Shown here piece after piece: positions 4,200 through 34,181 of a stretch of 34,543 nt of DNA; the first letter of the stretch is position 1, and each line of letters opens with the position of its first letter. The DNA comes from Candidatus Woesearchaeota archaeon (GTDB lineage Archaea > Nanobdellota > Nanobdellia > Pacearchaeales > GW2011-AR1). The notes under the pieces were generated by a model. That model ran no database searches. It was not told the origin of the DNA and worked only from the letters and a program-made list of their open reading frames with translations. The DNA lies in assembly GCA_964450135.1 (NCBI GenBank), contig CAYVCF010000002.1, positions 1-34,543 on the forward strand. Direction: 5' to 3'. The position numbers and the translations under genes were made by a program.

Positions 4200-4462
4200 G
4201 AATATAATTTTAGTTTTATCTCTACTAAATTAATTGATAAATAAAAATCTGGAGAAATAACTGCAATTAATTATCCTCCAAGATTTTCATTTAGAAGAAT
4301 CCCACTTATTGCAAAATTTTGTGAAAGGCATGGTATTAATTAATTTTTAAAAAAGATTTTATAAATTTGCTCTATTAATTTTGTTCAACTCCTTTTTTCA
4401 TTAAATCTTCTATGAAGGATTTTTTTTAAATATTATGGAACAGAAATATTTTTTTGTAATTT

Positions 4463-4711: not shown

Positions 4712-4818
4712 AAAAGAAAATTCAATTTTAAGTTTATAAATATTGTTGCAAAATTTAGCATACAACGAGAAAATATAAAAACACTTAGATATATAAAAAC
4801 CAAGCCCCTTAAAATAAA

Positions 4819-10351: not shown

Positions 10352-10978
10352 TTAATCGCAAAATCCCCTTTCACCTTCAGGTCTAAAAGGTTCAAAAAAT
10401 ATTAATTTTACCCAACCCGCATACGGCATAATTTTGAAAACTGCTTTTCCAATTAATTGCTCTTGTGAAATTTTTTTCTCAACTCCGAGCTGTCCTGCGT
10501 TGTTGTCGCCCATTGTTGAAAAATAAAATTTTTCATTTTCTTTGGTTATATTTACAATTCTGTGAATAATTGGATTTTTTGTTCCTGCTTGAAAAATTAT
10601 CACATCTCCGATTTCAAGTTTTTCTGGCTTCGCACCGACGATAAAAAGGATATCTGCTTTGTTAAACCCTTTTTTAAAAATAAATTCTGAAAATTCTGTT
10701 TTGTTTAATTTGAATAAAAAATATTTTGAATCTTGATTTTCCCACCAGTTATTGTAATTAGAAAATAAATTTCCTTGATGATACATTGAGCACGACTCAA
10801 CAATCGCGAGAGGGAGTGAAGTTCCAGTTACAAAACTCAACAAAGGAAAAAAAATAAATTTTATAACGACAAATAAAAAAATCAGAGAAATTAACCAACC
10901 CTTCGGCGAGTCATCTTTCCAGACAATAAACCAGAATTTTTCAAAAAACTTTTTCACACTCTCTTTATTCATGAACAC
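10352..10978 (-). CDS. Signal peptidase I, archaeal/Sec11 (S26B) type
   Basis: TM anchor followed by the boxes VESCSMYH, GDVIIF, IIHRIV and MGDNN. Confidence 0.85.
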   Translation of the reverse strand: MFMNKESVKKFFEKFWFIVWKDDSPKGWLISLIFLFVVIKFIFFPLLSFVTGTSLPLAIVESCSMYHQGNLFSNYNNWWENQDSKYFLFKLNKTEFSEFIFKKGFNKADILFIVGAKPEKLEIGDVIIFQAGTKNPIIHRIVNITKENEKFYFSTMGDNNAGQLGVEKKISQEQLIGKAVFKIMPYAGWVKLIFFEPFRPEGERGFCD

Positions 10979-12842: not shown

Positions 12843-15800
12843 TTAAATACCCTCAATTTCTTTTTTGATTGAATCAATTTCTCTTTTTATTCCAGCAGAA
12901 TCTTTTTCAGGAATTTTTCCTTTGAAGGGTCTTAGTCGGTCTTCTAAACTTTTTATTTTCAATTCAACATTTGATGTCTTCTTTCCAAGTTTTTTCTTTT
13001 CTTCAAGCGCCTTTTTCAAACCGCTAAGTTCTTCGTTCAAAGATAAACTTTTTTCAGGATTTTTTAAAACATATTTTTCTCTTTCAATTTTTGCTTTTTT
13101 AATTCCTTCAATAACTTCTGCTCTTTGAATTTTTTCAACAACTCTGTGCATTGGTGCTTTTCCTAATCTTTTCCATTGCTCGGCAACTCTTGGAACAAGC
13201 GACTCAAGATACATATCGGCCATTTGGAATTGTCCTTCTTTAACTTTTGATTTTGTAAGTTTTAATTCAAGTTGCAAATCAAGAACATCAATTTTCAAAC
13301 TACTCAACTGAACAATCTGGAATTCCAAGTCCTCAATTTGCTCAAAGTATTTTTCATATTTATCTAATTCAACATTTGTCAATCTTCTTGTATTGTGCAA
13401 GACAGGTCTGAATGAAACAAAATAAGGACGACCATTGTTGTATTCTGCGTTGACTGCCATTCCTGTTCCAACTGGTTCTTTAACAACTGATTTCAAAACA
13501 TCTTCTCCAAATTTCATACTGACTCTTTCTAAATCGCCTTCGTAACGAGTGCCCATTTGAATTTCAGTTCCAATGTTTGCTTTAATTTCTCCAATAAAAT
13601 CGCTCAAGACCTGCGAAATTAAAACTAAACCAATTCCCCATTTTCTGAATTCTCTTGCCCCTCTTTCAAGTTGTATAAATCCCTGTCCACTTCCTCCGAA
13701 TTTTGGAAGCAATCTATGAACTTCGTCGTAAACAATTAATGTTTTTAATTCCTGACTTTCTTCTGGCTCTGATTTGAAGACCTGCTCAATTGTCGACGCT
13801 ACAACCACATCAATTTGTTGCGGAGTCAAATGACTAATGTTAAAAATTGTAATTTCTCCTGGACGATTCATATATTCTCTTAAATTAATTAATTCAAACG
13901 GATCCCTAATTGTTTTTATTGAACCATTGAACGCTCTTGCATCAGTCGGTTTCATATCAAAATATTTGTAACGCTTTATCATTTCTTTATCTTCTGCTTT
14001 TCTTAAAAATCCTGTCCACTGCGCAGTTGGATCAAAAATAATCACACTTTTATTATGAAGCAACGCGCCCTCAATAATATCTTGCGCGCTGATTGTTTTT
14101 CCGCTTCCTGTTGAACCCGCAATCAAAGTATGCATTTGCAATTTATTTAAATCAACAAAAGTTCTTATTCCTGTTTCTGCAACCTTGCCGACAAACGCAG
14201 AGTGTGGAGTAACTTGCGGAAGTTTTCCTAAATCAACTGCTGTCTTAAATCTTTTTCCCTTGAACTGAAGATATCTTATGTAAAGATAGCCCGCGAACAA
14301 TAATCCTGCAAATAAAATTATTGACAAATATACCCACATAGGAATACCAAACAAGGTGCGTTTAAAAAATGGCCAGTTAACACTTACATAAGCAATTGAC
14401 GACGCCTGCATACTTTGTTCAACATTAGAATAATAAGCAGTTGCCTTAACCATATATTTTCCTGTCGGGGTCTCTGCAGGGATTTTTAATTCTTTAACTG
14501 TGCTAATTGTTGTCTCAACTGCAAAGGCCTCTTCATTTCTTGCAAAAATTTCTCCAGTATTTACATCCAGCAATTGCAAATCAAATTGAACATCAACTTT
14601 TTTTGTCTTTCCAAGATTCAACAAATCTGTCTGCAATCTTAAAGTTCCCCCAGGAGAAACCCTTGTAGTTAATGGCTGAATTTTTACATCAAGAAGTTTT
14701 CCTTCAGGAGATAAAATTCTAATTGTCGTCGGTATTTTTCCGCTGTTCTCTCCAGAAGAAATAATTAAATCACCGTCATAATTTCCTGCGTCAACAAATT
14801 TCGGAGCAACAATTTTTATCAAAACATCTCTAATTTCATTTGGCTCTAATTCAACTAAAGAATTTTCAAAGAAAATAAATTCAACAATGTCTCCTTCTGC
14901 GCTAAGTGTGATAGAATTTTTTTGATTTAAAGTATTCGCCAATCTTATCCTTACAGAAGTTGTCTCTCCTGCAAATAATTCTTTGTAAATTGAAGTTGTT
15001 TCTAATTTTACTCCCCCAATATTTATTGAACCCTTTAATAATTCTTCAATTTTTTTCAATGTCTTTGAACTAATTCCTCCGCCCCCTCCTCCGCCTCCGC
15101 TCGTTGTCGTAGTTGTTGAACCAGTTGAACAATCTGTTGAGCAACTTGAAGTTGTCTCGCCATAAGCGGTTTCGCACAAACCATTTCCGCATTTATTTTC
15201 TGCTAAGAAATACGACGAGAAACCAGTTGCATTTCCTGTTAAAGTCAAATTATTTATATCCCGAGTTGTGTAAGATAATTCAGACCAACTTCCGTTGCAA
15301 CTTCTGTTTGCATAAATCCAGTCAGAACATTTTATAATCGCAAGCCGACTTGCAGAATCATAATCATAACCAGTATAATTAAATGTAATATTCATACCTC
15401 TTGAACTAAAGCCAGTTGAGTTTGAAGCAAAACCAATAAATGGATTGTAAGCCACGATTGTTTCAGCAACATCTCCCCCGCTAATTCTGTAAAGATTTAA
15501 ACTAATATTATTTTGAGAAAGATTTGTGAAATTCACATTAAACATTCGTATCTCGTCGTAACTTGCTTTTACAATTATGTCATATGCTCTTTTATTTACA
15601 TTTAGTCGGATTCCTCCTGTCGCGTTTGTGTAATTGCTCATTAAAATTGTTGTAGTATTTGGCCTGAACAAACTTACATTCATATTTGTAACAGCAGATG
15701 AAACATAATCCACAATTTTGAAAATCCAATTATAATTGTCATAAACTTCAAACCAATCAACAGAAGAATTTAAATTTCCAATCGTGTCATTCGCAGAATA

Positions 15801-18800
15801 ATTTACAAGATATTCTCCTGCATTTGTCAAAGCAAAACTATTATTAATGTAATATCCAGCAGAATAAGTAAATGTTAAATTAAGTTGCGAAGTATTTGGA
15901 TAAGTTAAAACCCCGCTCACACTTCCAACAGCAACATTATCTGTCACATTAAATTGCAAATTAATATTATCGTTGAGGTTCACGCTATTTCGCGTAATTG
16001 AAAAACTCGGAGAAGAAACATCTCTTGAAGAAATTGAATTTTCTGAAACAGAAGTTATTTCCCCATAAGTTGAATGAGTTGCTGAAACACTTAAATTATG
16101 ATCCATCCCTCCATAAATTGTTGGAGCAGTGCAATTAATATTCCATAATAAAGTTGAAGAACTATAAGATGAATTTACATTTGAACAAGAACTTCCATTA
16201 GTTGTGACACTCCAAGTTGCTCCAGAAGTCACAGCAGAACCTCCGTAAGTTAAATTTGCTGTAAAATTAATTAAGCCCCCAGCAGTCACATTTGTGAGTT
16301 TTGACGACGAGGTTGGCCAAACAATTGAAAGATTAAATGCAGTTGTTGTAAGCGAGACAGAAACATTTCTTTGAGTCGGATTCGCGCTTGAATTAGTTAT
16401 TGAAATTGTTACATTGTAAGTTCCTTCAACACTCGGAGAAGTGTAATTAATCATAAAGCTCGTGTTAAAACCTTTTTTCACAAGAAGGGTGCTAACATTT
16501 GTTCCAATTATTGACGCGTTTGTCGACGAGAAAACAAAAGTTATGTTTGTATTTCCTGAATTATTTATTGTGACTGCTTCTAAATTTCCTGTCTGACTTG
16601 TTGCTTTTGTATAACTTATAGAAGTTGTGGAGGCGGTCCAAGTCAATGTTTCTGGAACCTGAACATAAACAGTTGTTAAATTAGATTTATTCTGATCTGA
16701 AATATTTAAAACCCCTTGATAATTTCCGCTGAAAAATCCTGTTGAAGTTGTGACGCTGACATTAACTCTTCTTGAAGAATTTGCATCAATTGAAAATGCA
16801 GAATCATTTGCAGAAAAAGTCATTGAGTCGCAAACTTCTCCGCTTAAACAAGAGATGCTCATATTTGAGAGTTCGTCATTTCCTGTATTATTTATTTCAA
16901 CAACTGTTGAATCCACAGAACCAGAATCTACTGATAAATTAACAATTCCAGGAATATGAACAAAAGATTTATTTGACCCAACCGCGATTGTGATATTTAA
17001 TCTTAATCGTGAAATAGTGTTGTCTGGTTCTCTCCAAGTTAAAGTCGCGGTTAAATTATAGTCCCCAGAATGAGTCATCTTTGAAACATTCACTTGGAAG
17101 ACCTTGCTTGTGTTTGTTCCTGCTAAAATATCACTGAACAAATTATTTGTTGGAACAACGACGATGCTTCCATTAGAACTAAAAGTTATATTTGGAGAAT
17201 ACGCAGTAACATTTCCAATATTGCTAAGAGAATAATTTACATAAAACATATCTTGGTTATCCAGATTTATTTTTGCTGTGCTAAAAGAAGTTCTGTTCTG
17301 AGAGAAATTTAATGTTGCAGTTCCATAAGCAGTGAAAGAATAATTTTGCGAAGTAAATGTATTTCCATATTTATCATAAATTAAAACGCTTGCGTTATAC
17401 ATTCCTGCAGAAGTTGAAGAATAATTTCCAGTAAAGTTCGCAACTGTCTTGTCTGTTCCTCCAATGCACTGACCAAATTGTCCGCACAAACTTGTTGCAT
17501 TAATTGATTCAACAACTGCCTTGCTTGAGTTTGTAATATTAATAATTGTTGTTGTCAAATTTATTGAAATATCGTCGGTAGTTCTGACTTTTATTGTAAC
17601 ATTTTTATTTACTTCTGCAATTGTTCCATAAATATTGTCAAGCAAGAAATAAACATCTGTTACATTTGGTCCTTGTTCATAAATCCAGAATTTTTCTAAA
17701 ATTGAACGAGTTGTCGGAGAAGTTGTTGAGTTATAAAAAGTTGTCTTGACAATTGCATTATCCAAACTCAAAGAATAGCCCTTTTGATAAAGCGTGACAT
17801 TGGTAGTATTTCCGAGAGTAACATTAACTAAAGTTGGATTCATAGTCATTGTATTTACAACATAATTATTTTCAAACAATTGAGTTCCATAATCAGAATA
17901 ATTTGTCTCGCTTCCAGCAATACGATCAATGTAAGAAATATTAATTGTCAAATTTGTATTTCCAATATTATAAATTGTGTAATTCGCAAACTCGCCTGCA
18001 GTATTTAATGAAAAACTTTTATTAAAAGTGTAATTTGTCGCTGTTGTAAAATACCAAGAATAATTATAAGGAACTTCAATTGTGATATTAAATTGTTTAT
18101 ATCCGTCGTTTTCAGATGTGACATTTATAAAACCAGAATAATTTCCAGGAAGAGTTTGCGCTGGAACAGAAAGATTAACATTTATATCTTGATTTTGTCC
18201 TGACGCCAATCCAACTATTGAAGTAGGAGAGATATTTACCCAAGTGCTTGAAATATTATATGTCTCTGTTGTTAAATTTCCCTGAATAAATGAAGAAACA
18301 ATTCCTGTTATTGAGTCAGTCCCAATTGACTGAACTTGAAACATAAATGAATCGTTTTTATTATGATGAATTGTTTTTGTGACATTTGTTGAATTAATTG
18401 AAAGAGTTGCGTTTAATGCAATGTTTACAAACATATCTGTATCTGTAATATATTCATTACCGCCTGTTACACTTCCGTCATTGTCTGTCCAATTTGCTCT
18501 CCATGCAACATATTTTTGTCCGTCGCTCGCAGTTCCTTTTACAACAATTAACATTGAAACATTGCAAGATAATCCTGGATAAATTCTTGAGCAAGGAGTG
18601 ACTTCTGTTACACTTTGAATATCTGTATGTGTCGCAGCCATATGCGCGTAAACATGCGGACTTAACATGCTTGAATGTCCTGTATTTGTCAAAGTCGCGT
18701 TCCAAGAAAATTCATAATTTGTTCCTGCAACTAAATCTGCAATTGATTTATTCAAAACATTTAAAGTTCCTGAAGTATTTTTTTCTTCAAGATATTCTAA

Positions 18801-30800: not shown

Positions 30801-33800
30801 CCAAATTGTCGACGAGAAAGTCCAGTTTTGATTATTTCCAGAATTCACGCTTTGATATGCAATTAAATTTGAAACACCAGCAGAATTATTTGAATCCATA
30901 ATATCTGCTCTATCTATATCCATCCAAGAACCAGAAAAATTTATGAACCACTGAGTTGCATCAACCTGACTTCTAAGATAAGTTGGATGAGTAGAATTTC
31001 CCTTAACTGCAAGCCCCCCTGTAATATTAAAATTAACTTTTGTTTTGTTCCCGCCTTTTTCAAAAAATAAAGTTGCTCCTGGTTTTGTAATATTCAAATT
31101 ATAAAAAGAAGAATTCCCATAGATTGTTGCGTTTGAAGTTCCTGCGAAAATAATTGTTGAATTTACTCCTGCAGTAAAAGTTCCATTTGAAATATTTAGA
31201 TCTCCATAAATTGTTAAAGTTGGAAATATTCCGAGAGAGGAATTAAATGCACTCACATTTAGGATTCCACTATTTCTAATTATTACGTCTCCGACAAGCG
31301 TGTCGGTTACGTTTTCTGAGATAAGGGTTGTAGCTGTTGTACTTGTCAATTGATTATCTATAATTAATTTTCCATAAGTGTCTGTGGATTTTTTTAAGTA
31401 AATTGTGCCAGCAGCACCTTCGTCAGTAGCTGTGCCTCCATAAGCAGTTATATTTAAACTTCCAAAACTTACTCCATTAGCTAAAACAATCGCTATTCTT
31501 CCGCCACCGCCACCACCACTACCGCTCGGATAATCTAAAGCTCTTCCTCCAGTAGATTCTATTTTTCCATTTCCGTTTATAACATTCGCAAGAATAAATA
31601 CTGAACCGCCGGAACCTGCACCATAACCATTAGAACCCCCGAGGTTACCATTTGTTTCGATAATTCCATCAAGGGTAACATTTCCTGTAACATTCAACCA
31701 TACTGCTCCTCCCCCATAAAGAGGATAACTTGCGGGCGAACCACTTCCCAAATTTGTTGGACTTTTAACAGAACCATAAGTAGTACCTGCTGTTCCTCCA
31801 TTTCCTTGTCCGCCCATTCCTCCATATCCACTTCCACTTCCCCAACCAGCAGCACCTCCTATAAGTCCAGCTTTACCCGGCCCATATCCGCCGTCATACC
31901 CCAACCCAGTAACATTAATCATTCCCCCACTTTCCAAAGTAAAATTACCCCCAACAATCATATTTAATCTATATGTTTCTGCATTACTATTATCTCCGTG
32001 CGTTAAAGTCCCGTTAGAAACAATCACATTTTCTGTCACATTCAAAGAATTATTCCACGCAAGTCTAGATTCAATTGTTCCACTATAGCCGATTGAAACA
32101 TTTAAAGAATAAATTGCACCTGCAAAAGTTGAATTAATTATTGAATTATTTAAATTACCCTCGTCAAAGACAACTGCAGTTGTCTCGTTTGGAATTCCAA
32201 TTCCTCCTGCTCCTCCTGAAGTCGCAGACCAAGAACTTGCATCTGTCCAGTTTCCGTTGTTCAAACCAACCCAATAATAAGTTGCAATCGCAGAATTTAA
32301 AGTATAAGTCACAATCAGTGTCGGAGAATAACTTAAATTTTCTGATGTGTCAAAATACATATTTGGCGGAGTTCCCAAACCACAGCTCATATTTGTGGGA
32401 ATTCCAATGCCGGCCCAACCGCTTGATGAATTAAATATTGAAGTCTGTGTTGCGTTTGTTCCCAAATTAATTAATTTAAAGCCAGCTGTCTGACAAAAAT
32501 CAGAATTGCTTACAAAATTAGTTCCGTTTCCTATATCTGTCCATAAGTCATCTGCATCAGTTGAAGAATTTGAAATTTCCAAACTCCAAATATCACAGCT
32601 TGTAGCAGAACTCACAGAATCAACTGAAATATTTAAAGTAACATTTGTTATAGTCACCCCTGCTGGAATTGAAGAAATATTGAAATAATAATATGCGCTT
32701 TTTGGTGTTCCAGGAGAGCCCCCAAGTCGCCCTGTCATTGCTGTGCTTCCTGTTTTAGAAGTTGTGTTAGCAGAACAAGATGAAGTTTTCTGGGATTCTC
32801 CGTCGTCAAAAATAGAAGATATTGAAGTTGTAATAGATAAAGGGTCCACAACATAATCGTATTCTACATTTCCAAAAGAACGCAAATCAAAAGTTGATTG
32901 AGAATAATTATTTGAATTTCCTGACCAAACTCCGCAGTTTCCGTCGTCAGATTCATATTCAAAAATTTCTCCTGAAATATTTAAAGAACAAAAATTGTTT
33001 TTTGAATCTGTTACGCTGGAAGTGAAAGTTTTGACTTCACTATCTTGATTATTATTTTGAAGATCAAGGCTTGAGTTAGGAATTGGACAAGAAACATTTA
33101 AATATTTCGTATTATTAGAAATATTACAATCCGGTATCAACTTATTGCGGGCTATTCTGTTTGAGCCCACTTTGTTTTTTTGTTTTTCTAAATTATTTTC
33201 TTTTAACTCATTTTCCAAATTTTCGTCGCCAAAATTTTCTTCTAAATTATTTTTCTCCCTTCTCACAAGAATAATATCATTTTCAACATCAACGTCGTAA
33301 ATTTTTCCAGAATAATTTTCTTTTGAAATTGAAATTACTTTCACTGGTTTGTTTTCCGAGTTTAAGAAATAAATTTCTTTTCCATTTTCAAAATCAGAAT
33401 AAACTTCTGCAATTGGTTGAAGAGAGAAATTAAATGTAGTGGCGCCGTAGCCGAGAATCGAACTCGGAATTCCGGTGAAGGAACCTTGTTTATCAGACAA
33501 GTGCCTTACCATTAGGTCTACTACGGCATCCACTACAAAATCATTATTTGTAGAAAAGTTTATATAGTTATTGTCATTCAAATAATTATATCCGGTGAAG
33601 GAATGTTCATCAGATTGGAGTCTTACCATTAGGGCTAACTTATCACTAGTCCATTTATTTTTTTCTGCAGAATAAACTTTATGTTTTTCGCTCACAACTA
33701 AATTTCCTTCTTCAGTTTCAATCACAAACATTTCTCCGTCATAATCAAAAATTTGTTTTTCAGTTGGAATTTGAAATTCTATTTCTCCAGTTTTTTGATT

Positions 33801-34181
33801 TAATGTCGCGACTTCTTCTTTCCCATTTAAGTCAGCAAAATATTTCCAACCATTTTCAGTTAAAATTTTTGTTTCATTATCATAACACTCGCTTAAATTA
33901 TTCAAAAATATTTTATACATTTTATTTTCAGAAATATTTTCAAACTCTGCAATTTTTACCTCGGAGTCCTTTTCATAAACTTCAACCCGAGAAAAATTTT
34001 CAACAACACTCGCGTTTTCTAAATCCAAATCTAAAAGCCAATCATACCCAGAAATATTTAATTCATTTTCTAATTGATTTAATTCTTCTTCAAGTGTCTG
34101 CGACTGCACAAATACAAATCCAGCAATTGCTAAAACAATTGCAATTATTAAAAATAGATTGATGAAATTTTTAGTTTTCAT
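12843..34181 (-). CDS. Giant (7112 codon) surface protein. It has a signal anchor, LamG/beta-helix/Ig-like repeats interrupted by 4 inteins, a TM helix, a cytoplasmic HerA/DUF87-like ATPase and a coiled coil.
   Basis: The 21.3-kb frame is uninterrupted in about 30% GC DNA. GAGGT lies 8 nt upstream of the ATG. N-terminal helix is FINLFLIIAIVLAIAGFVF. There are hundreds of N-x-S/T sequons. LamG signatures (WxFDE...FDGDGDYV...NGSxDEVMIFN) are repeated. A CARDB-like segment is present (NISNEGP...VDPSNSILEKNETNN). C-terminal TM, Walker A and Walker B are listed separately below. Confidence 0.85.
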   Translation of the reverse strand: MKTKNFINLFLIIAIVLAIAGFVFVQSQTLEEELNQLENELNISGYDWLLDLDLENASVVENFSRVEVYEKDSEVKIAEFENISENKMYKIFLNNLSECYDNETKILTENGWKYFADLNGKEEVATLNQKTGEIEFQIPTEKQIFDYDGEMFVIETEEGNLVVSEKHKVYSAEKNKWTSDKLALMVRLQSDEHSFTGYNYLNDNNYINFSTNNDFVVDAVVDLMVRHLSDKQGSFTGIPSSILGYGATTFNFSLQPIAEVYSDFENGKEIYFLNSENKPVKVISISKENYSGKIYDVDVENDIILVRREKNNLEENFGDENLENELKENNLEKQKNKVGSNRIARNKLIPDCNISNNTKYLNVSCPIPNSSLDLQNNNQDSEVKTFTSSVTDSKNNFCSLNISGEIFEYESDDGNCGVWSGNSNNYSQSTFDLRSFGNVEYDYVVDPLSITTSISSIFDDGESQKTSSCSANTTSKTGSTAMTGRLGGSPGTPKSAYYYFNISSIPAGVTITNVTLNISVDSVSSATSCDIWSLEISNSSTDADDLWTDIGNGTNFVSNSDFCQTAGFKLINLGTNATQTSIFNSSSGWAGIGIPTNMSCGLGTPPNMYFDTSENLSYSPTLIVTYTLNSAIATYYWVGLNNGNWTDASSWSATSGGAGGIGIPNETTAVVFDEGNLNNSIINSTFAGAIYSLNVSIGYSGTIESRLAWNNSLNVTENVIVSNGTLTHGDNSNAETYRLNMIVGGNFTLESGGMINVTGLGYDGGYGPGKAGLIGGAAGWGSGSGYGGMGGQGNGGTAGTTYGSVKSPTNLGSGSPASYPLYGGGAVWLNVTGNVTLDGIIETNGNLGGSNGYGAGSGGSVFILANVINGNGKIESTGGRALDYPSGSGGGGGGRIAIVLANGVSFGSLNITAYGGTATDEGAAGTIYLKKSTDTYGKLIIDNQLTSTTATTLISENVTDTLVGDVIIRNSGILNVSAFNSSLGIFPTLTIYGDLNISNGTFTAGVNSTIIFAGTSNATIYGNSSFYNLNITKPGATLFFEKGGNKTKVNFNITGGLAVKGNSTHPTYLRSQVDATQWFINFSGSWMDIDRADIMDSNNSAGVSNLIAYQSVNSGNNQNWTFSSTIWCDEGDRSTDCLLNHTYYFTDNETLPSFNNLILGTNGSIVNYSTNVNNHGAGFVMSVLGNFTMLTNSNITGGNISISVGKNFTMYSNATINASGLGYGSGSGPGKPSGAAACSGGFYGGMGGSGDWPSTGVSGITYGSIINPKDFGSGGSSSSGGGAIFLNITGITNLSGIITSMGTNYGGSGSGGSIYLISNSIVGIGSINVSGGTNSGAIGCGGMGGGGGGRIAVILTNGTDFNNINFYTFGGKGANAGGAGTIYLKTANQTYGQLIIDNNNATSATATTLISENVTDTIVGDVIIRNAGKLNISAFNSSLGIFPSLTIYGNLNKTSSGNFSAGVNSTIIFAGTSNATIYGNSSFYNLNITKQGSYVFFEAGGNLTKPNFNVTGALNIQGSASAPVYLRSQVDATQWFINFSGSSQDIDYVDVKDSNNIGTILNANLSFDVSNNDGWLFVQDEDRQLTNTSHYLMNVTEEMFNKTENNTHLTISTRGRPYNYLVGYWSFDGDKENTQGFNASDLAVNNEGTAYGNAVVNETNAIFGDALQLDGDGDYVSATTTQNNNSVSLWYKTNVSNWIHVVYNSTYNYNGGTGIEFPFNRTDNTILIGVNGTQFFNGSLDEVMIFNTSLTASEILDIYNNQSARFKSTGNQIVKQFNISSGFDNLNLTADIEKNKATNVSTRIGTWDISKDYRNYDLGEHWGEFDGDGDYVSATTTQNNNSVSLWYKTNVSNWIHVVYNSTYNYNGGTGIEFPFNRTDNTILIGVNGTQFFNGSLDEVMVFNSSLNSSEIKRLYEMGRDIVGYEHANLVSWWGFNTNSTIGIDNKGLNNGTANGNAKVNSTFNGLVGYWHFDDLVANNFSDSSGYCYDNETKILTENGWKYFSDLNGKEEVATLNQKTGEIEFQIPKERQEFNYNKEMYKIILEDGSDLVVSDKHKVYYAEKNKNNFQEKNSLEFSTSQEKINSVENKKGSNRMVEPNLLIPSYENCKEEKYLNISANSNDCVGVAEWLLQLVDTKCPSGFVGSIPTPGVINFSLQPITEVYENYLDGEEIYFMDSENKLVKVKSISKENYSGKIYDVDVENDIILVRREKNNLEENFGDENLENEKDKDAIDNVASMVRHFVYPDFNNLNDNSYINFSENNNFVVDAVVASMVMHSPDERGLSRHPSSILGYGATTILNSQNTDDKNNFCSLNVSGEIFEYESENGNCGVWSGNSNNGTLTMTGAGPNLTSGVFDDAVSFDGNGDYVQLNNVLSDTRNNNTISVWFNANKNNTLMTLVDADSWQGNTIDIDANGKLVYTRHTGTIANEATCSRSITTGEYHLVTATMNGSEGMKIYLNSVLCGNNSYNVSIPYSFQFFGKRQNNINFFNGSIDEVMIFNRSLSEAEIKELYVKGRAKFTIPEFRNYTIGMQVAIPTATTNVLPEFKFLSDANNFYTPYIIGGISSSSATTTDTIFPTISYAPPTLENNTGLNSNSVFVNVSVTELNPANISFNLYNTTNTFTLVNSTTYTLSDTISNLSINFTALSDTTYHYNVTITDVANNKNTTPLRTQIVDTIFSNISLVSPTFENGSYLNSNSIYVNVSTTDTNEHSAFIDFNGSLVGWWKFDEMNSSGDVYDNSSYCYDNETKILVREEINCWENFNEENLEKEFDDDEFENNLGNKFGAFGAYKSALARELANFSENTDENLENSLNEKNKKGSNRMVEPNLLIQSYDNRKEEKYLNISVNSNDCVGVAEWLLQLSDTKCPSGFVGSIPTPGVINFSDDKIKNSKTCYNYSWKYFSDLNGKEEVATLNQKTGEIEFQIPKEKQEFDYNKEMYKIILEDGSDLLVSEKHKVYSLGLNKFSGYEINLNKDITNNLPLNSDEFTFSSSLDNNENVVSINGGEILNTTIPKCSSGGNNLLLRKCLSNVNKTLDSDLAILDTCLSVEFDGTSFTSCPSCISKSLTAFGKFSSERNFSLFLEKSMLFFSDEFRSICQNRENSIFCERWKIILENFINSNSCSEQLHNLPDHNSCVIENWDASANFTICNNEIINSNSHNKISNQELYKSFSLQPITEVYENYLDGKEIYFLNSENKPVKVKSISKENYSGKIYDVDVENDIVLIKRDAKNYEEENFGDDENKNKEGSNRMVEPNSLILSNNNCREEKYLNISVDSDNLDAGMVEWLLQLTDPECPSGFGGSIPSARVLGFSDDKNKFCSLNISGEIFEFESDDGNCGVWSGNSNNGISYGNANQTASGKRGKAFAFDGDGDYVDVGTGNSLNISNEISLGIWIKPAVIINNTNSNIRLINKNVAYYLAFDYPSQNGKLKLIIYNGSYIDLSSATSNWNADSWYNIFSTRNSSGYSAIYINGVLENNSIISGAIVTSTSSIEIGRSNSATSYFNGSIDDVMIFNRALSASEIKSLYNASAPNYGVENNFTNLPDGTYNYTAYVQDVAGNVNKTTIRHIFVDTSQPFTQFETPTPANGSQQGGNQNSIFINATSNDTQANISTFVDWDNSLVAWWRMDDVNSSGDVVDYMGRCYDNKTKILVREEISCGENNFVGVNNLENIEDKNNENKNYKEENLKKEFVAFGADESVLARERTNFSEVSDDKNKKCYNYSWKYFADLNGKEEVATLNQKTGEIEFDKPIEYQTFDYDDEMFAIETEKGDLVVSPKHKVYSNLNNFNKSFVDKILILSCLRNAFSSDQIGQFEKSASAKYGESFLELCGEILSASDKNEKYSELLTEIISDDNSEYRKSNSDLSIPENFNILDFEFINSSKTNLGEINSQSEFSNSSIKYLLNDLCWKNENKIFASMTNFFGIDSIFQSPCFSATCSFSSDASSDICSSVNLLLDNKLSAKENCILLVNCLTTLVNADLNSSLSSEGTSILTTISSMIENNYKEYLNFSVNDFGLQPITEVYSDFLNGKQVYFLDENKNLIKVKNIRKENYSGKIYDVDVENDILLVKRNNLIVWSGNSNGTKFGNAQQNASGRLGKSFSFDGAGDYVSATTTQNNNSVSLWYKTNVSNWIHVVYNSTYNYNGGTGIEFPFNRTDNTILIGVNGTQFFNGSIDDVMIFNRSLSAEEIAMLYANTSSRYFNKNFTELSDATHTFRVYTQDIFGNVNYTDKRYVSVDVTPPVVTAIQPVSSGNYYAPAMDFNVSASDSLGIDTCLYSLDNTTNVTMTAFNSTWFNYSYTGLLHGFHNLTFACNDTMGNIGTATALNFNVVFTDLRIESVVFPLTTYSNSTIIYVNISNEGPPPAYLINVTCSLAGAIFDSHEIPSIGVNESYLTNCTKIFTSGLNQVVNVTVDPSNSILEKNETNNENLTYVNVSELTTMDAYDLEDDDENKFFWFDAEDEPLPDETNTYFFANFTQDNSSASVLNANCNITLSGGNETGTASVNLSYNSTAKFYYYNKTFNYAGNYSWETKCSKDFYEMLNYSGIARIRIPLYNQTSWGNTTSKTFVNYNELANLTLNVSEMGIDTAKIGYNVSLVWVQISIPNSTKINKSLSGSPTGGIWNLTYNPNGVLGEHWLIYFANLTNGHNVVKTITGNFSVQNTSISIATLSVANTTNEINMNGIINRFNGSNYYPIENNLFNIKLNNVLVSSDTYNYSANNLTLGYGDGNANISSSIKLNLTSQGVAHSYIDSFSGSTYATDSEEYNNLGKVDGTSGRIFEGDQMNLTTGNITYRFDSMTAFYNATIYATTQASQDEPGANTSVWYSLNNSTWIILGSSISQGAYVGGVLPVDRYSVFYVRLQSDHTAGLENPIDNFEVNYTHYNYSNLGIYYSQNITLPNVSYTVLKWSRNLNEGTIKIQLRESDDGIAWGSWSANYTNYLDNDISSFTNDYLQFRAILETTNLSKSPELLEVDLRFFNASTNSTGGYNYTITIPTDNLGSLPLEVSVVENSVTGIVGLNTTYITIWTLTSLPYVSSSIYSGSATNHSVVANFTRSDTGGLINGSINISIWNGTGVNFSVQKSKVCNTTDNCLASWIVPADLSYGNYTIYINGSNETGYYRNGSATILEYLEEKNTSGTLNVLNKSIADLVAGTNYEFSWNATLTNTGHSSMLSPHVYAHMAATHTDIQSVTEVTPCSRIYPGLSCNVSMLIVVKGTASDGQKYVAWRANWTDNDGSVTGGNEYITDTDMFVNIALNATLSINSTNVTKTIHHNKNDSFMFQVQSIGTDSITGIVSSFIQGNLTTETYNISSTWVNISPTSIVGLASGQNQDINVNLSVPAQTLPGNYSGFINVTSENDGYKQFNITIEVPYNYSWYFTTATNYTFNKSFSLNTAGEFANYTIYNIGNTNLTINISYIDRIAGSETNYSDYGTQLFENNYVVNTMTMNPTLVNVTLGNTTNVTLYQKGYSLSLDNAIVKTTFYNSTTSPTTRSILEKFWIYEQGPNVTDVYFLLDNIYGTIAEVNKNVTIKVRTTDDISINLTTTIINITNSSKAVVESINATSLCGQFGQCIGGTDKTVANFTGNYSSTSAGMYNASVLIYDKYGNTFTSQNYSFTAYGTATLNFSQNRTSFSTAKINLDNQDMFYVNYSLSNIGNVTAYSPNITFSSNGSIVVVPTNNLFSDILAGTNTSKVFQVNVSKMTHSGDYNLTATLTWREPDNTISRLRLNITIAVGSNKSFVHIPGIVNLSVDSGSVDSTVVEINNTGNDELSNMSISCLSGEVCDSMTFSANDSAFSIDANSSRRVNVSVTTSTGFFSGNYQGVLNISDQNKSNLTTVYVQVPETLTWTASTTSISYTKATSQTGNLEAVTINNSGNTNITFVFSSTNASIIGTNVSTLLVKKGFNTSFMINYTSPSVEGTYNVTISITNSSANPTQRNVSVSLTTTAFNLSIVWPTSSSKLTNVTAGGLINFTANLTYGGSAVTSGATWSVTTNGSSCSNVNSSYSSSTLLWNINCTAPTIYGGMDHNLSVSATHSTYGEITSVSENSISSRDVSSPSFSITRNSVNLNDNINLQFNVTDNVAVGSVSGVLTYPNTSQLNLTFTYSAGYYINNSFALTNAGEYLVNYSANDTIGNLNSSVDWFEVYDNYNWIFKIVDYVSSAVTNMNVSLFRPNTTTILMSNYTNATGGIRLNVNKRAYDIIVKASYDEIRMFNVNFTNLSQNNISLNLYRISGGDVAETIVAYNPFIGFASNSTGFSSRGMNITFNYTGYDYDSASRLAIIKCSDWIYANRSCNGSWSELSYTTRDINNLTLTGNATGFSSYFLAENKCGNGLCETAYGETTSSCSTDCSTGSTTTTTSGGGGGGGGISSKTLKKIEELLKGSINIGGVKLETTSIYKELFAGETTSVRIRLANTLNQKNSITLSAEGDIVEFIFFENSLVELEPNEIRDVLIKIVAPKFVDAGNYDGDLIISSGENSGKIPTTIRILSPEGKLLDVKIQPLTTRVSPGGTLRLQTDLLNLGKTKKVDVQFDLQLLDVNTGEIFARNEEAFAVETTISTVKELKIPAETPTGKYMVKATAYYSNVEQSMQASSIAYVSVNWPFFKRTLFGIPMWVYLSIILFAGLLFAGYLYIRYLQFKGKRFKTAVDLGKLPQVTPHSAFVGKVAETGIRTFVDLNKLQMHTLIAGSTGSGKTISAQDIIEGALLHNKSVIIFDPTAQWTGFLRKAEDKEMIKRYKYFDMKPTDARAFNGSIKTIRDPFELINLREYMNRPGEITIFNISHLTPQQIDVVVASTIEQVFKSEPEESQELKTLIVYDEVHRLLPKFGGSGQGFIQLERGAREFRKWGIGLVLISQVLSDFIGEIKANIGTEIQMGTRYEGDLERVSMKFGEDVLKSVVKEPVGTGMAVNAEYNNGRPYFVSFRPVLHNTRRLTNVELDKYEKYFEQIEDLEFQIVQLSSLKIDVLDLQLELKLTKSKVKEGQFQMADMYLESLVPRVAEQWKRLGKAPMHRVVEKIQRAEVIEGIKKAKIEREKYVLKNPEKSLSLNEELSGLKKALEEKKKLGKKTSNVELKIKSLEDRLRPFKGKIPEKDSAGIKREIDSIKKEIEGI
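13400..14150 (-). other. HerA/DUF87-type P-loop ATPase domain of the giant ORF (cytoplasmic side)
   Basis: Walker A is LIAGSTGSGKT (about 14094-14120). Walker B is LIVYDEVHRL (about 13712-13741). GIGLVLISQVLSDF sits at the HerA QRPS-like position. Confidence 0.7.
14280..14355 (-). other. Single C-terminal transmembrane helix of the giant ORF
   Basis: FGIPMWVYLSIILFAGLLFAGYLYI is followed by RYLQFKGKRFK, which fits positive-inside topology. Confidence 0.7.
21664..21863 (-). repeat. LamG core repeat, copy a (about 200 bp, 1 mismatch versus copies b and c)
   Basis: ggagccgttgaaaaattgcgttccattaactcc...gttgctgaaacataatcccc encodes GDYVSATTTQNNNSVSLWYKTNVSNWIHVVYNSTYNYNGGTGIEFPFNRTDNTILIGVNGTQFFNGS. 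Confidence 0.85.
22156..22163 (+). promoter_or_regulatory. TATA box for the antisense PIN operon
   Basis: TTTAAATA ends 22 nt before the ATG at 22186, a leaderless-type spacing. Confidence 0.5.
22186..22395 (+). CDS. Putative antitoxin (69 aa) of the PIN module, antisense inside intein 4
   Basis: MEEIVVKIDVPSELNEEF...LLSKSKLTDEQISELASELK. It ends 3 nt before the PIN gene. The track ORF begins at an upstream TTG (22174). Confidence 0.6.
   Translation: MEEIVVKIDVPSELNEEFKSALTKVVKQFTRRMQFSLADNLLSKSKLTDEQISELASELKEQVAEKHGL
22399..22839 (+). CDS. PIN-domain (VapC-like) ribonuclease toxin, antisense inside intein 4
   Basis: KLVIDANILFSFF (first acidic residue), FVFEEL, and SPYFALALFSNCPIWSDEKAF, with PIN-like spacing of D/E residues over 146 aa. 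Confidence 0.7.
   Translation: MESIPKKLVIDANILFSFFQHKSFRRYLIEELLNSDCELISPKFVFEELMNSKSKILKFSGIDKSEFDFLYSLLSSEIISVKSSEYFSFLSEADKISPHSSKKDSPYFALALFSNCPIWSDEKAFLKQDKIRILSTKDLLKLLRLE
23052..23113 (-). repeat. GC-rich double-hairpin module in the block A loop of intein 4
   Basis: The minus strand reads GTCGCCTTCGGCGCTGATGAAAGCGTGCTTGCACGCGAGCGC. It is homologous to 25771-25832 and related to intergenic module X (aaatttggcttcgcc...ttgcacgcaactt). Confidence 0.55.
24257..24338 (-). tRNA. tRNA-like gene B (family 2), type II body with GAU at the anticodon position
   Basis: Hand fold gives GCGGGCA TG GTAG-AATGGTTA-TTAC A ACTCA-CTGATCC-TGAGT GCCCTTCGGGGTTT GGGGG-TTCGATT-CCCTC TGCTCGC G. TATTTAAATA lies at 24365-24374, 27 nt upstream. 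An oligo-T run follows. The sequence is in frame within the giant ORF. Confidence 0.65.
24365..24374 (-). promoter_or_regulatory. TATA box of tRNA-like B
   Basis: The minus strand reads AAGTATTTAAATATTTCG, translated as KYLNIS in the intein frame. This string is conserved in cassettes B, C and D. Confidence 0.5.
24672..24679 (+). promoter_or_regulatory. TATA box for the antisense DUF433/DUF5615 operon
   Basis: TTTATATA ends 22 nt before the ATG at 24702, the same spacing as at the PIN operon. Confidence 0.5.
24702..24941 (+). CDS. DUF433-family antitoxin-like protein, antisense inside intein 3
   Basis: CGGVPVFNNTRIMVWQVMELLGAGITIDEVLQNYFPSLTKNAILSVLTYA matches the DUF433 consensus (CGG.P...GTRI.V..I......G.S.eEI...YP.Lt...I.aAL.YA). 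Confidence 0.8.
   Translation: MRIAINDFIVTDSEICGGVPVFNNTRIMVWQVMELLGAGITIDEVLQNYFPSLTKNAILSVLTYASKLVGEEKHALLQE
24922..25308 (+). CDS. DUF5615 / Mut7-C-like PIN-fold toxin-like protein, antisense inside intein 3
   Basis: KFLSDENFPKAVRDLLMQEGHDVKEV...DKQVSKIAKSESRVLLTFDKHF...GIVVFKI. It overlaps the DUF433 gene by 20 nt. The track ORF begins at 24892. Confidence 0.75.
   Translation: MLFSKNKLKFLSDENFPKAVRDLLMQEGHDVKEVPSNSTDKQVSKIAKSESRVLLTFDKHFLNKRLFPPEEHFGIVVFKISPPLIETTFSLLSKLLEKVNSSEFKGRLFVISLFRFISYPENLFKPKE
25541..25622 (-). tRNA. tRNA-like gene C (family 2), type II body with GAU
   Basis: GTCGGGG TG GCAG-AATGGTTA-TTGC A ACTTT-CTGATAC-AAAGT GCCCTTCGGGGTTT GTGGG-TTCGATT-CCCAC TCCCGGC G. TATA lies at 25646-25655. 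Confidence 0.65.
25646..25655 (-). promoter_or_regulatory. TATA box of tRNA-like C
   Basis: TATTTAAATA lies 24 nt upstream of the tRNA-like 5' end. Confidence 0.5.
25771..25832 (-). repeat. GC-rich double-hairpin module in the block A loop of intein 3
   Basis: The minus strand reads GGCGCCTTCGGCGCTTATAAAAGCGCGCTTGCACGCGAACTCGC. The GCGCC/GGCGC and GCGYGC/GCACGC stems are conserved with 23052-23113. Confidence 0.55.
27293..27377 (-). tRNA. tRNA-like gene F (family 1), type II body with GAU and encoded CCA
   Basis: GCCGTAG TA GCAT-CAATGGTA-ATGC A CTCGC-CTGATGA-GCGGG GTCTATCCAGACAT CCGAG-TTCGATT-CTCGG CTACGGC G CCA. TATATAAA lies at 27409-27416, 32 nt upstream. Confidence 0.7.
27409..27416 (-). 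promoter_or_regulatory. TATA box of tRNA-like F
   Basis: The minus strand reads AGCTATATAAACTTTTC, translated as SYINFS. The same string precedes tRNA-like A. Confidence 0.5.
27731..27812 (-). tRNA. tRNA-like gene D (family 2), type II body with GAU
   Basis: GTCGGGG TG GCAG-AATGGTTA-TTGC A ACTTG-TTGATAC-CAAGT GCCCTTCGGGGTTT GTGGG-TTCGATT-CCCAC TCCCGGC G. TATA lies at 27836-27845. Confidence 0.65.
27836..27845 (-). promoter_or_regulatory. TATA box of tRNA-like D
   Basis: TATTTAAATA lies 24 nt upstream of the tRNA-like 5' end. Confidence 0.5.
28497..28706 (-). repeat. LamG core repeat, copy b
   Basis: Identical by eye to copy c. The two are tandem with a 468-nt period. Confidence 0.85.
28965..29174 (-). 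repeat. LamG core repeat, copy c
   Basis: See copies a and b. Confidence 0.85.
29500..32110 (-). repeat. Tandem duplication (period about 1371 nt, 457 aa) of a Gly-rich beta-helix-like module
   Basis: Both units contain GLGY..G.GPGK, GGGGGGRIA(I/V), TIYLK...YG(K/Q)LIIDN...ATTLISENVTDT(L/I)VGDVIIRN...SAFNSSLGIFP(T/S)LTIYG...STIIFAGTSNATIYGNSSFYNLNITK...YLRSQVDATQWFINFSGS. Long identical DNA strings occur, for example at 29571 and 30942. Confidence 0.8.
32990..33170 (-). other. Degenerate family-2 cassette E (upstream hairpin and TATA retained, cloverleaf lost)
   Basis: The GGGCT-CAAACAGAAT-AGCCC hairpin and AAATATTTAAATG are retained. The downstream part folds only into two simple hairpins. 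Confidence 0.4.
33440..33527 (-). tRNA. tRNA-like gene A (family 1), GAU, encoded CCA, weakened D arm (possibly decaying)
   Basis: GCCGTAG TA GACC-TAATGGTA-AGGC A CTTGT-CTGATAA-ACAAG GTTCCTTCACCGGAATT CCGAG-TTCGATT-CTCGG CTACGGC G CCA. Only 2 of 4 D-stem pairs form. TATATAAA lies at 33559-33566. Confidence 0.5.
33559..33566 (-). promoter_or_regulatory. TATA box of tRNA-like A
   Basis: The minus strand reads AACTATATAAACTTTTC, 32 nt upstream of the tRNA-like 5' end. Confidence 0.45.

Follow-up and report, generated by a model that had tools for sequence, protein, structure and literature searches.

A SPEARE-type giant surface protein of a Woesearchaeota/Pacearchaeota-like genome ends in a HerA-like ATPase behind a single transmembrane helix

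Why should a surface protein of some seven thousand residues end in an ATPase on the inner side of the membrane, and what might the ATPase do there? The window, by which we mean the whole 34,543-nucleotide stretch of DNA that was analysed, contains an uninterrupted minus-strand ORF of 7,112 amino acids plus stop, as given by the ORF list and its translation (Table 1), and the last 477 amino acids of its product make up an ATPase of the HerA clade, lying in the cytoplasm with its catalytic motifs intact, and a helical tail behind it. DPANN archaea rely on their hosts for nucleotides and lipids, among other things, and the genes for SPEARE-type proteins, among which we place this one, are some of the most striking in their small genomes. 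The ATPase is the only enzymatic domain detected in SPEARE-type proteins, both here and in earlier work (PMC10266531).

Table 1. Layout of the giant ORF and its product (nucleotide positions in the window; residues numbered along the protein)
Feature	Position	Strand	Basis
SPEARE-type giant surface protein ORF	12843..34181	-	ORF list, translation, Pfam domains in the ectodomain
N-terminal signal peptide/anchor, aa 1-28, hydrophobic core aa 7-25	34098..34181	-	Kyte-Doolittle 2.97, the top hydrophobic stretch of the protein; basic MKTK before the core
Extracellular region, ~6,580 aa	14352..34097	-	no further hydrophobic segment; sequons 2.2-fold over expectation; Cys 1.1%
Cys-rich knot and Thr/Gly-rich linker, aa 6331-6369	15075..15191	-	inspection of the sequence
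Two membrane-proximal Ig-like beta-sandwich domains, aa ~6386-6601	14379..15026	-	AlphaFold, Foldseek, homologue alignment
Single TM helix FGIPMWVYLSIILFAGLLFAGYLYI, aa 6611-6635	14277..14351	-	Kyte-Doolittle 2.14, sole internal hydrophobic segment; a single long helix in the AlphaFold model
Cytoplasmic HerA-clade P-loop ATPase core, aa ~6661-6925	13407..14201	-	profile and fold matches
Walker A AGSTGSGKT, aa 6688-6696	14094..14120	-	string located in the translation
Walker B LIVYDEVH, aa 6815-6822	13716..13739	-	string located in the translation
HerA-type motif ERGAREFRKWGIGLVLISQ, aa 6839-6857	13611..13667	-	aligns with the HerA/FtsK arginine-finger and sensor-Gln motif
C-terminal helical, coiled-coil-like tail, aa 6936-7112 (177 aa)	12846..13376	-	seven modelled helices; 39 K/R and 33 D/E

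A Kyte-Doolittle scan of the whole protein (19 residues) found segments above 1.6 only at aa 7-25 and aa 6610-6628, and as there are just two hydrophobic segments the chain is predicted to cross the membrane once after the signal/anchor, leaving most of its length, the ~6,580 aa between the signal/anchor and the sole internal TM helix, extracytoplasmic. The 20 residues after the TM helix hold six K+R, as against two in the 20 residues before it, which fits the positive-inside rule. The ectodomain has 5.4 N-glycosylation sequons per 100 aa and the cytoplasmic part 0.6, and cysteine makes up 1.1% of the former and 0% of the latter, an enrichment that, judged from sequence, is that of a surface glycoprotein. 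As the charge, sequon and Cys biases agree, we assign the P-loop ATPase to the cytoplasm. The preliminary description of this DNA had proposed one crossing after about 6,600 residues followed by basic residues, then Walker A, Walker B and a HerA-like motif inside the cell, and about 180 aa of coiled coil at the end; the TM helix and the basic residues behind it lie as it said, all three indicators put the P-loop domain inside, every motif string was found at its position, and the terminal region proved to be a 177-aa coiled-coil-like tail with seven helices in the AlphaFold model.

The ectodomain is built of LamG, Ig-like and beta-helix-like modules. Pfam finds several copies of Laminin_G_3 (7.6e-52) together with matches to CARDB, NPCBM_assoc, Big_13 and Hint/intein families, and four Hint/intein-like inserts are present. 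Near-identical internal repeats are also seen within the giant ORF. The first ~4,200 aa vary, whereas aa ~4200-6610 are kept in close relatives, with collinear HSPs that begin at aa ~4200-4660, extend to the C-terminus and show ~50-53% identity (loci L008, L010-L013, L024 and L065). The Cys-rich/Thr/Gly linker marks the border between the giant part and a conserved C-terminal module of ~740 aa, and stand-alone homologues begin just past the equivalent point with a signal peptide of their own. Between linker and membrane the AlphaFold model m46a3902b782e predicts two all-beta domains (block pLDDT ~65-90), for which Foldseek returned RbmA and WxLIP-type tandem Ig/FnIII folds. The Ig-like pair is common to fused and stand-alone members of the family and aligns across 40 homologues.

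This layout closely resembles that of the SPEARE proteins of Nanohaloarchaeota, which are likewise very long and mostly extracellular, carry laminin-G and Ig-like adhesion domains and a C-terminal TM helix, and have the cytoplasmic P-loop domain as their most conserved part, followed by a coiled coil. The 2023 re-annotation of SPEARE gives the same order of signal peptide, giant ectodomain, TM helix, cytosolic ATPase and coiled coil (PMC10266531). The link runs through RLG14629.1, the ORF of our locus L039, which was named as a SPEARE match by Hamm et al. 2019 (PMC6642349) and which is 44% identical to the C-terminal module of the window protein over residues 2-741 and 58% identical in the ATPase core; the archetypes themselves are NAR1_1133, AOV94740.1 and SVXNc_0300, and a search seeded with the nanohaloarchaeal C-terminus returned short proteins only and none of these named archetypes. 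The nanohaloarchaeal protein NOQ55491.1 matches at 52% identity (E=5.5e-153), and collinear homology of at least ~1,300 aa, spanning ectodomain, TM helix and ATPase, is found in a member of Nanohaloarchaea (L049), of Aenigmatarchaeota (L040) and of Micrarchaeia (L059). The window protein differs from SPEARE in its host lineage, its closest loci being Pacearchaeota/Woesearchaeota MAGs (the window has ~31% GC), in its four Hint/intein-like inserts, and in having neither an adjacent second ATPase nor a coiled-coil partner gene. It also lacks a detectable serine-protease or toxin-like domain, a Pfam scan of the whole protein finding no such domain and no peptidase family. Laminin-G and adhesion domains were required of all SPEARE members, whereas the serine protease from which the family takes its name was reported in the protein of Nha. 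antarcticus alone (PMC6642349), and both protease and nuclease domains were argued in 2023 to be absent from the archetypes (PMC10266531). As the protease is not family-wide and is disputed, its absence here is not disqualifying, and we are nearly certain that this is a SPEARE-type protein of the topology described, in a Woesearchaeota/Pacearchaeota-like genome. Since the architecture and the functional speculation attached to it have already been published as SPEARE (PMC6642349, PMC10266531), they are no discovery of ours. Makarova 2014 counted HerA-like (arCOG00280) and DUF95/SpoIIM proteins among the frequent contents of genomic islands and did not describe a giant fusion with a TM helix and ATPase, and a full-text literature search for DUF87 with DPANN retrieved no papers.

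Across the species genomes of DPANN archaea no fewer than 586 loci encode relatives (at E<=1e-30 there are 369 matching cluster representatives), and the design turns up in Woese-, Pace-, Aenigmat-, Micr-, Nanohalo- and Altiarchaeota as well as in Hadarchaeales. Among 143 cluster representatives 103 are longer than 1,000 aa and 49 longer than 2,000 aa; these 49 always carry the C-terminal ATPase. The fusion, which the preliminary description proposed to look for in DPANN giant genes, is recurrent. Other members are stand-alone short forms (~700-840 aa) encoded in operons directly behind secreted-protein genes. From such an arrangement a frameshift or misassembly could have fused a giant surface-protein gene to a separate TM-ATPase gene of ~780 aa, a reading to which the near-identical repeats inside the ORF lend some weight, as does the homologous region of L001, which is called as four genes. 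The window ORF, however, is open throughout, more than 30 independent genomes have uninterrupted collinear ORFs in which over 2,000 aa, and in the longest more than 3,500 aa, precede the TM helix, all complete relatives placed beside the window protein in a neighbour-joining ordering of ATPase cores are long, and the breaks checked in L001 sit at T7 and T5 homopolymers, typical of sequencing error. On account of the collinear uninterrupted ORFs in dozens of independent genomes we do not regard the fusion as an assembly artefact; the misassembly reading was rejected, its probability being negligible.

The class of the ATPase bears directly on its possible function. Pfam assigns it to DUF87 (E=2e-13, 51 bits), PADLOC to HerA (1e-17), and when the family profile was compared with the PDB only HerA proteins reached E<1e-3 (4d2i, 7.7e-10). 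As the rmsd of the 743-aa multi-domain model was inflated because of its domain arrangement, Foldseek was redone on the cytoplasmic part alone (model m598b958dd261, pLDDT 88), and here HerA 4d2i was again best (E=7e-11), with FtsK (1.7e-8) and TcpA (2e-8) next. The motif ERGAREFRKWGIGLVLISQ aligns to ...EGRKYG(I/V)G..L.SQRPS of solved HerA proteins and is almost fully invariant. By sequence and model, then, the domain is best classified in the FtsK-HerA superfamily and nearest to HerA/DUF87, as the preliminary description had supposed and as came out of all profile and fold searches, with VirB4/TraG and type III restriction enzymes fitting less well; SPEARE had previously been read as VirB4/TraG or ResIII, whereas the ATPase here is nearer HerA. 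HerA translocases (archaeal HerA-NurA, anti-phage Sir2-HerA and DUF4297-HerA) share with it Walker A, Walker B and the 'ARE.RK.G...SQ' motif and are its best profile and fold matches, yet identity to them is only ~14-16%, and the window protein, unlike them, is membrane-anchored, has a long coiled-coil tail and lacks the N-terminal HAS beta-barrel. The NCBIfam HerA models, whose cut-offs are 800-970, reach 23-32 bits. As the HAS barrel is absent and no NurA, Sir2 or DUF4297 partner was found among the window neighbours or the conserved neighbours, we call the domain HerA-like and do not consider it a bona fide HerA orthologue.

One older interpretation can be set aside at this point. SPEARE was originally taken to break down imported DNA with a module resembling type III restriction enzymes (PMC6642349), and Pfam ResIII does match the window ATPase above its cut-off (27.5 bits, E=3.4e-6, against 22.5 bits). 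The match, however, covers the generic Walker A-Walker B region (query aa 71-217) and is weaker than that to DUF87, no nuclease domain or motif was detected by Pfam, NCBIfam, PADLOC or fold search, and the same conclusion was reached for the SPEARE archetypes (PMC10266531). With a ResIII match confined to the P-loop and no nuclease domain, this reading was rejected, and we give it hardly any chance of being correct.

All catalytic residues are invariant across 47 aligned homologues (A, G, T, G, G and K of Walker A; D, E and H of Walker B; plus R), and Walker A is separated from the TM helix by only ~50 aa and a short beta-hairpin, the median distance from TM helix to Walker A in the family being 77 aa. 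With the DUF87 score and the 369 matching representatives, this invariance takes the observation well out of the reach of chance. The invariance of the motifs makes an active, energy-using domain likely, which upholds the suggestion of the preliminary description that the protein is energy-coupled and renders a passive anchor less likely. All characterised FtsK-HerA ATPases work as rings, and we hold with good confidence that the domain is an active, oligomeric ATPase.

If the ring is a motor, the genes that accompany it might reveal what it serves. A gene for a conserved, soluble coiled-coil protein lies 3' of the ATPase gene in 58 of the 86 loci compared, in many of them within ~50 nt; tblastn did not find it in this window, and searches of the partner protein with Pfam, NCBIfam and profile-PDB gave generic coiled-coil matches only. 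By a crude test that combined hydrophobicity counts with BLAST clustering within 6 kb, neither a second ATPase (Walker-A) neighbour family nor one with at least three TM segments is shared by over three of the 86 loci. SpoIIM/DUF95 was considered as a conserved channel partner and rejected, being present in three loci only. The window itself has no adjacent second ATPase gene and nothing T4SS-like in its 34.5 kb, and no T4SS-like partner is conserved across loci. As neither a conserved polytopic channel nor a T4SS partner exists in this survey, the ring with its own TM helices would be the sole conserved membrane element.

These neighbourhoods weigh on the proposal, made for nanohaloarchaeal giant proteins (PMC10266531), of a T4SS-like secretion role, in which a VirB4/TraG-like ATPase would export effectors to the host by way of a T4SS-like apparatus. 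VirB4 and VirD4/TraG do share the FtsK-HerA superfamily, a VirB4-like ATPase was reported as the next gene in two cultivated nanohaloarchaea (PMC10266531), and the window ATPase gives weak local matches to Pfam TrwB_AAD_bind (27 bits), AAA_10 and T4SS-DNA_transf, to NCBIfam VirB4_plasma and TraC, to IcmO/DotL in the profile-PDB comparison (0.004) and to TcpA in Foldseek. HerA nevertheless ranks above VirB4/VirD4 in all comparisons, and the 50 best fold matches include no VirB4 structure; VirB4_plasma reaches 31 bits where its cut-off is 590, and TraC 29 where 567 is required, T4SS-DNA_transf stays below its cut-off (16.3 against 20.1), and TrwB_AAD_bind passes on 44 residues around Walker A only. 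Pfam shows neither a VirB4 N-terminal domain nor a CagE/TrbE/VirB N-terminal domain. Taken with the lack of any recurrent second ATPase or polytopic family among the 86 loci, these results leave a type IV secretion-like export motor distinctly unlikely.

The coiled-coil tail and the partner gene are as suggestive of a part in anchoring or in a cytoskeleton as they are of transport. HerA in anti-phage systems is a scaffold or regulator and an assembly platform, not a transmembrane pump, and it is conceivable that here too the ring acts as a mechanical or organisational hub without transport, anchoring the adhesins to a cytoplasmic coiled-coil scaffold and spending ATP on building, tensioning, retracting or renewing the attachment structure. 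The conservation of the coiled-coil tail, the frequency and closeness of the downstream coiled-coil gene, the lack of a conserved channel partner and the platform role of the anti-phage proteins would all suit such a hub. The partner gene is, however, not next to this gene, its product gives generic coiled-coil matches only, and we know of no force-generating anchor among FtsK-HerA members, so that a hub without transport seems to us unlikely.

We favour, as a somewhat probable account of the whole, a SPEARE-family member whose ring ATPase moves a polymer across the symbiont membrane at the contact with the host. The ATPase domain would work as a ring, probably a hexamer, and so gather six TM helices, each with its giant arm, at a single site; the ectodomain would bind the host cell, and the ATP-driven ring would drive a polymer across the symbiont membrane where the two cells touch, the substrate being most likely host nucleic acid taken up by a symbiont that depends on it for nucleotides. 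The function of the window protein is inferred, and so are the DNA or substrate transfer and the force generation named in the preliminary description. DNA is suggested as the substrate because the nearest solved relatives, HerA (4d2i, 9x1m), FtsK (2ius, 6t8b) and the coupling protein TcpA (6o1w), are dsDNA translocases, and because the top curated NCBIfam match is CedD, a DNA-translocating ATPase, albeit far under its cut-off. FtsK/SpoIIIE, T4SS coupling proteins and Ced-type DNA-import ATPases act at the septum or at cell-cell junctions, and FtsK/SpoIIIE, TrwB/VirD4/TcpA and Ced-type ATPases resemble the window protein in placing one or more membrane segments before a cytoplasmic RecA-like motor. 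These membrane DNA pumps differ from it in having two to four TM helices and no giant ectodomain, whereas it has one TM helix and a giant ectodomain; their partner channel, relaxosome and pilus genes are not conserved near the window family, and all scores against them fall under the family cut-offs (for TrwB_AAD_bind see above). Nucleic-acid translocation as the job of the ATPase is accordingly put forward tentatively, as one possibility.

A bolder form of polymer movement would make the TM helix and HerA-like module a self-contained, contact-dependent import pore for nucleic acid, in which six copies conduct host DNA or RNA through their own TM helices. We consider this improbable, as we do its two extensions, namely that the Ig-like collar and six adhesin arms cap the ring on the outside with the nucleotide-auxotrophic DPANN cell as recipient, which is an equally doubtful proposition, and that the downstream coiled-coil protein serves as a cytoplasmic stator or regulator, which is a long shot of the same order. 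To our knowledge DNA-sized pores made from single-TM hexamers alone have no precedent, which counts against the transport account favoured above as well. Were such a pore to exist, it would constitute a class of membrane DNA translocase distinct from the T4SS, Ced and Com systems.

What the survey adds to the published picture is that the design is pan-DPANN, that its motor is HerA-like, and that its company is a coiled-coil partner and not T4SS genes; the new details are the operonic stand-alone forms behind secreted-protein genes and the frequent coiled-coil partner. It narrows the hypotheses for the few cultivable systems, sharpening an existing question and opening no new one. With regard to the joining of adhesin and motor in one chain, peptides of the ectodomain and peptides of the TM/cytoplasmic part were recovered by Hamm et al. 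in different gel size fractions (PMC6642349), and the two parts may thus be separated after synthesis.

The giant ORF is an instance of the already described SPEARE design, here in a non-halophilic DPANN lineage. SPEARE proteins were defined in Nanohaloarchaeota by Hamm et al. (2019, PMC6642349) as mostly extracytoplasmic proteins of at most 8,553 aa that combine laminin-G and adhesion domains with a TM helix close to the C-terminus and with a conserved intracellular region interpreted as a type III restriction enzyme, and resembling sequences were noted in Woese-, Aenigm- and Micrarchaeota and in Altiarchaeales. A later re-annotation (2023, PMC10266531) gave a Sec signal, an Ig-rich ectodomain, a TM helix, a cytosol-facing "VirB4/TraG-like" ATPase and a coiled coil, and T4SS-like effector secretion was proposed for these giants. 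The ORF of L039, a related locus on contig QMVA01000037, is RLG14629.1, a SPEARE match according to Hamm et al. (PMC6642349), and as the C-terminal module of the window protein (two Ig-like domains, TM helix, ATPase and tail) aligns with it over residues 2-741 at 44% identity, and over the ATPase core at 58%, the window protein is tied directly to this family. The function suggested in the preliminary description, energy-coupled transfer or force generation at a cell-cell contact, matches proposals made by specialists.

The ORF is uninterrupted, and the sequence strings on which a single membrane crossing followed by Walker A, Walker B and HerA-type motifs had been claimed were all located within its last 505 aa. 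As a hydrophobicity scan of the whole protein yielded only two segments above threshold, an N-terminal signal/anchor (aa 7-25) and the TM helix, the protein crosses the membrane once. Lysine and arginine number two in the 20 aa preceding this helix versus six in the 20 aa following it, the ectodomain has 5.4 N-x-S/T sequons per 100 aa (2.2-fold over expectation) versus 0.6 in the cytoplasmic part, and cysteine makes up 1.1% of the former and 0% of the latter. These three independent biases in the sequence place the P-loop domain, by prediction, in the cytoplasm, as had been proposed, and the helical tail agrees with the announced coiled coil of about 180 aa. A Cys-rich knot and Thr/Gly linker (aa 6331-6369) separate the giant part from the C-terminal module. 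Since ectodomain and TM/cytoplasmic peptides of SPEARE proteins fell in separate gel size fractions (Hamm et al., PMC6642349), it is conceivable that the window protein is cleaved near this boundary.

Positions of features in the window and in related loci
Feature	Sequence	Position (nt)	Position in giant protein (aa)	Strand
Giant ORF, 7,112 aa	window	12843-34181		minus
TM helix, FGIPMWVYLSIILFAGLLFAGYLYI	window		6611-6635	
Walker A, AGSTGSGKT	window		6688-6696	
Walker B, LIVYDEVH	window		6815-6822	
HerA-type motif, ERGAREFRKWGIGLVLISQ	window		6839-6857	
Helical tail, 177 aa	window		C-terminal end	
Hint/intein-like insert 1	window	32916-33887	99-422	minus
Hint/intein-like insert 2	window	27174-28223	1987-2336	minus
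Hint/intein-like insert 3	window	24150-25952	2744-3344	minus
Hint/intein-like insert 4	window	21942-23255	3643-4080	minus
Laminin-G segment, 198 nt, three copies	window	28965-29162, 28497-28694, 21663-21860		minus
HTH-nucleotidyltransferase (NTP_transf_2), overlapping a 132-aa ORF	window	9299-10284		minus
TFS	window	8903-9223		
801-aa ORF	window	4819-7224		
DsbA/thioredoxin-like	window	1133-2128		
Likely signal peptidase	window	10352-10978		
Coiled-coil partner gene	L008	12333-13652		
Coiled-coil partner gene	L039	6384-7427		
Coiled-coil partner gene	L049	12779-14278		
Coiled-coil partner gene	L003	19043-20080		

The HerA/DUF87-type classification held in every comparison. The best Pfam match of the ATPase is DUF87, the HerA central domain (E=2e-13), with weaker local P-loop matches to HerA_C, TrwB_AAD_bind, AAA_10, ResIII and FtsK_SpoIIIE; PADLOC returned HerA (1e-17), and NCBIfam matches to CedD, VirB4, HerA and TraC models (E 1e-9 to 1e-5) all lie far under the curated cut-offs. 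A profile made from 40 family members and run against all PDB sequences found at E<1e-3 only HerA proteins, led by Sulfolobus HerA (4d2i, 7.7e-10), the sole other FtsK-HerA superfamily member listed being IcmO/DotL (0.004). The AlphaFold model of the 477-aa cytoplasmic part (mean pLDDT 88, pTM 0.82) likewise matched 4d2i best (E=7e-11, TM about 0.44), with anti-phage HerAs next, ahead of FtsK motor domains at 1.7e-8 and TcpA, a coupling protein, at 2e-8; VirB4 was absent from the best 50 fold matches. As these matches favour HerA, and as Walker A, Walker B, the Arg-finger region and a conserved Gln are invariant in 47 homologues, the domain belongs to the HerA clade of the FtsK-HerA superfamily and is, judging from these residues, probably active. 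It does not count as a HerA orthologue, since the N-terminal HAS barrel of HerA proper is missing and no partner of the NurA, Sir2 or DUF4297 type was found for it. The original restriction endonuclease reading stems from the ResIII-type P-loop similarity, seen here as the Pfam ResIII match, but this is limited to the P-loop region and a nuclease domain was looked for and not found, making a restriction enzyme extremely improbable.

The same fusion recurs among DPANN giant genes, a survey of which had been called for. When 1.84 billion cluster representatives were searched exhaustively with HMMER, 914 relatives were found, 369 with E<=1e-30. Among 143 new top representatives 103 exceed 1,000 aa, 49 exceed 2,000, 31 exceed 3,000 and five exceed 5,000; the ATPase is C-terminal in every case, at a median of 77 aa from TM helix to Walker A. 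In a scan of one genome per species at least 586 loci carry relatives. That the fusion is an assembly artefact has next to no likelihood. Nearly all the loci listed are labelled DPANN (Pace-, Woese-, Nano-, Nanohalo-, Aenigmat-, Micr- and Altiarchaeota) or plain "archaeon", and a few bins Methanosarcinales or Methanobacteriota. With the reading frame walked upstream, many hold complete ORFs of 2,500-3,700 aa and in others the ORF is still open where the 10-kb flank ends. Homology extends past the ATPase: collinearity with the window protein runs from aa ~4200-4660 to the C-terminus in close relatives (~50-53% identity) and over ~1,300-1,900 aa in nanohaloarchaeal, aenigmatarchaeal and micrarchaeal proteins (29-35%), leaving the N-terminal ~4,200 aa as the variable part. 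TM-ATPase relatives are also annotated in non-DPANN Hadesarchaea/Hadarchaeales bins (the P0237 protein cluster, with members P0267, P0270, P0271 and P0272), one being a 7,818-aa "PGF-pre-PGF domain-containing protein"; either the family is not confined to DPANN or the bins hold contaminating sequence.

Short forms of 690-840 aa carry their own signal peptide and the same conserved membrane-proximal Ig-like pair, TM helix, ATPase and tail. Directly before 10 of 12 such genes, or overlapping their start, lies an ORF on the same strand, and the complete ones among these upstream ORFs encode large secreted proteins (733-1,347 aa) with Big_9 or PKD domains; stand-alone TM-ATPase genes of ~700-840 aa adjoin a secreted-protein gene in this way in loci L003 (JAAGZO010000387), L004, L005, L078 and L079. 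As the short forms directly follow or overlap these ORFs, the giant gene looks like such a pair of genes joined into one. A neighbour-joining ordering of the ATPase cores puts the short forms into a few groups, and all complete relatives that it places next to the window are long. A pair of ATPase paralogues (764 and 1,653 aa) and a membrane protein of the SpoIIM/DUF95 type are also encoded in L003, with giants of 5,949 and 7,246 aa on the flanks. Locus L001 (JGI Ga0645779_06394, a 55.7-kb contig), tabulated with the 12 short-form genes, is counted apart from them as a broken long form: its orthologous giant gene is called as four genes (>3,037, 187, 332 and 545 aa), collinear with the window ORF, in frames shifting 2 to 3 to 1 to 2. 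Since the two junctions inspected (8395-8454 and 8950-9009) sit on T7 and T5 homopolymers, sequencing error or slippage is suggested rather than real gene boundaries.

Downstream of the ATPase gene, 58 of 86 loci encode a soluble, TM-free, highly charged coiled-coil protein of 215-788 aa, frequently within ~50 nt and conserved across DPANN phyla; it has only generic coiled-coil matches in Pfam, NCBIfam and PDB, and its gene is absent from the window. The ATPase may serve as an organisational or mechanical hub tied to such a coiled-coil scaffold, a reading we consider unlikely. As a motor for T4SS-like effector export it is more doubtful still: this model is weakened because no polytopic membrane protein or second ATPase recurs in more than three of the 86 loci, and in the window the giant gene is accompanied by small, unrelated genes (DUF6398, nucleotidyltransferase, TFS and others). 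These are ordinary archaeal genes, and at other loci none of them is linked to the giant gene. The HTH-nucleotidyltransferase overlaps a 132-aa ORF, possibly as a toxin-antitoxin pair; TFS is a Zn-ribbon TFIIS/RPB9 protein, the DsbA/thioredoxin-like protein is membrane-anchored and, by eye, the 801-aa ORF reads like a type IA topoisomerase and an SCSMYH motif points to the signal peptidase.

We propose that the ATPase would form a hexameric ring, that six TM helices and six ectodomains would cluster together, and that ATP would drive movement of a polymer at the host contact. To our knowledge, FtsK/SpoIIIE, the coupling proteins and the Ced-type ATPases, the membrane-anchored members of the FtsK-HerA superfamily, all transport DNA at a membrane or across it, and DPANN cells are generally nucleotide-dependent. 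For these reasons, and because the nearest characterised relatives are DNA translocases, nucleic acid is the substrate that we favour, tentatively and by analogy; the remaining probability falls to something else. The value of the survey lies in the recurrence of the design across DPANN, the assignment of its ATPase to HerA, the existence of split as well as fused genes, and the coiled-coil partner, which make an existing open question on SPEARE-type proteins somewhat more testable.

The ectodomain is interrupted by four Hint/intein-like inserts of 324-601 aa, each with a Cys start (CYDN[EK]TKIL), an S-x-x-H block-B-like motif and a block-F-like IYDVDVENDI, ending in WSGN followed by Ser and containing odd low-complexity insertions. 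As three of the four split laminin-G domains at the identical point, excision would rebuild the usual "DSSG..NNGT" strand. Singly they score 17-27 bits against Pfam Intein_splicing, under the 35.8 cut-off, and the N-terminal 3,700-aa piece scores 44 bits. Similar elements occur in five related giant genes (L010, L011, L015, L016 and L029), and if an exported protein carries inteins or BIL-type Hint domains, this could matter for its processing. The three laminin-G segment copies are identical at 196-197 of 198 nt, which indicates recent internal duplication or gene conversion, and such repeats may also mislead the assembly of the variable ectodomain from short reads.
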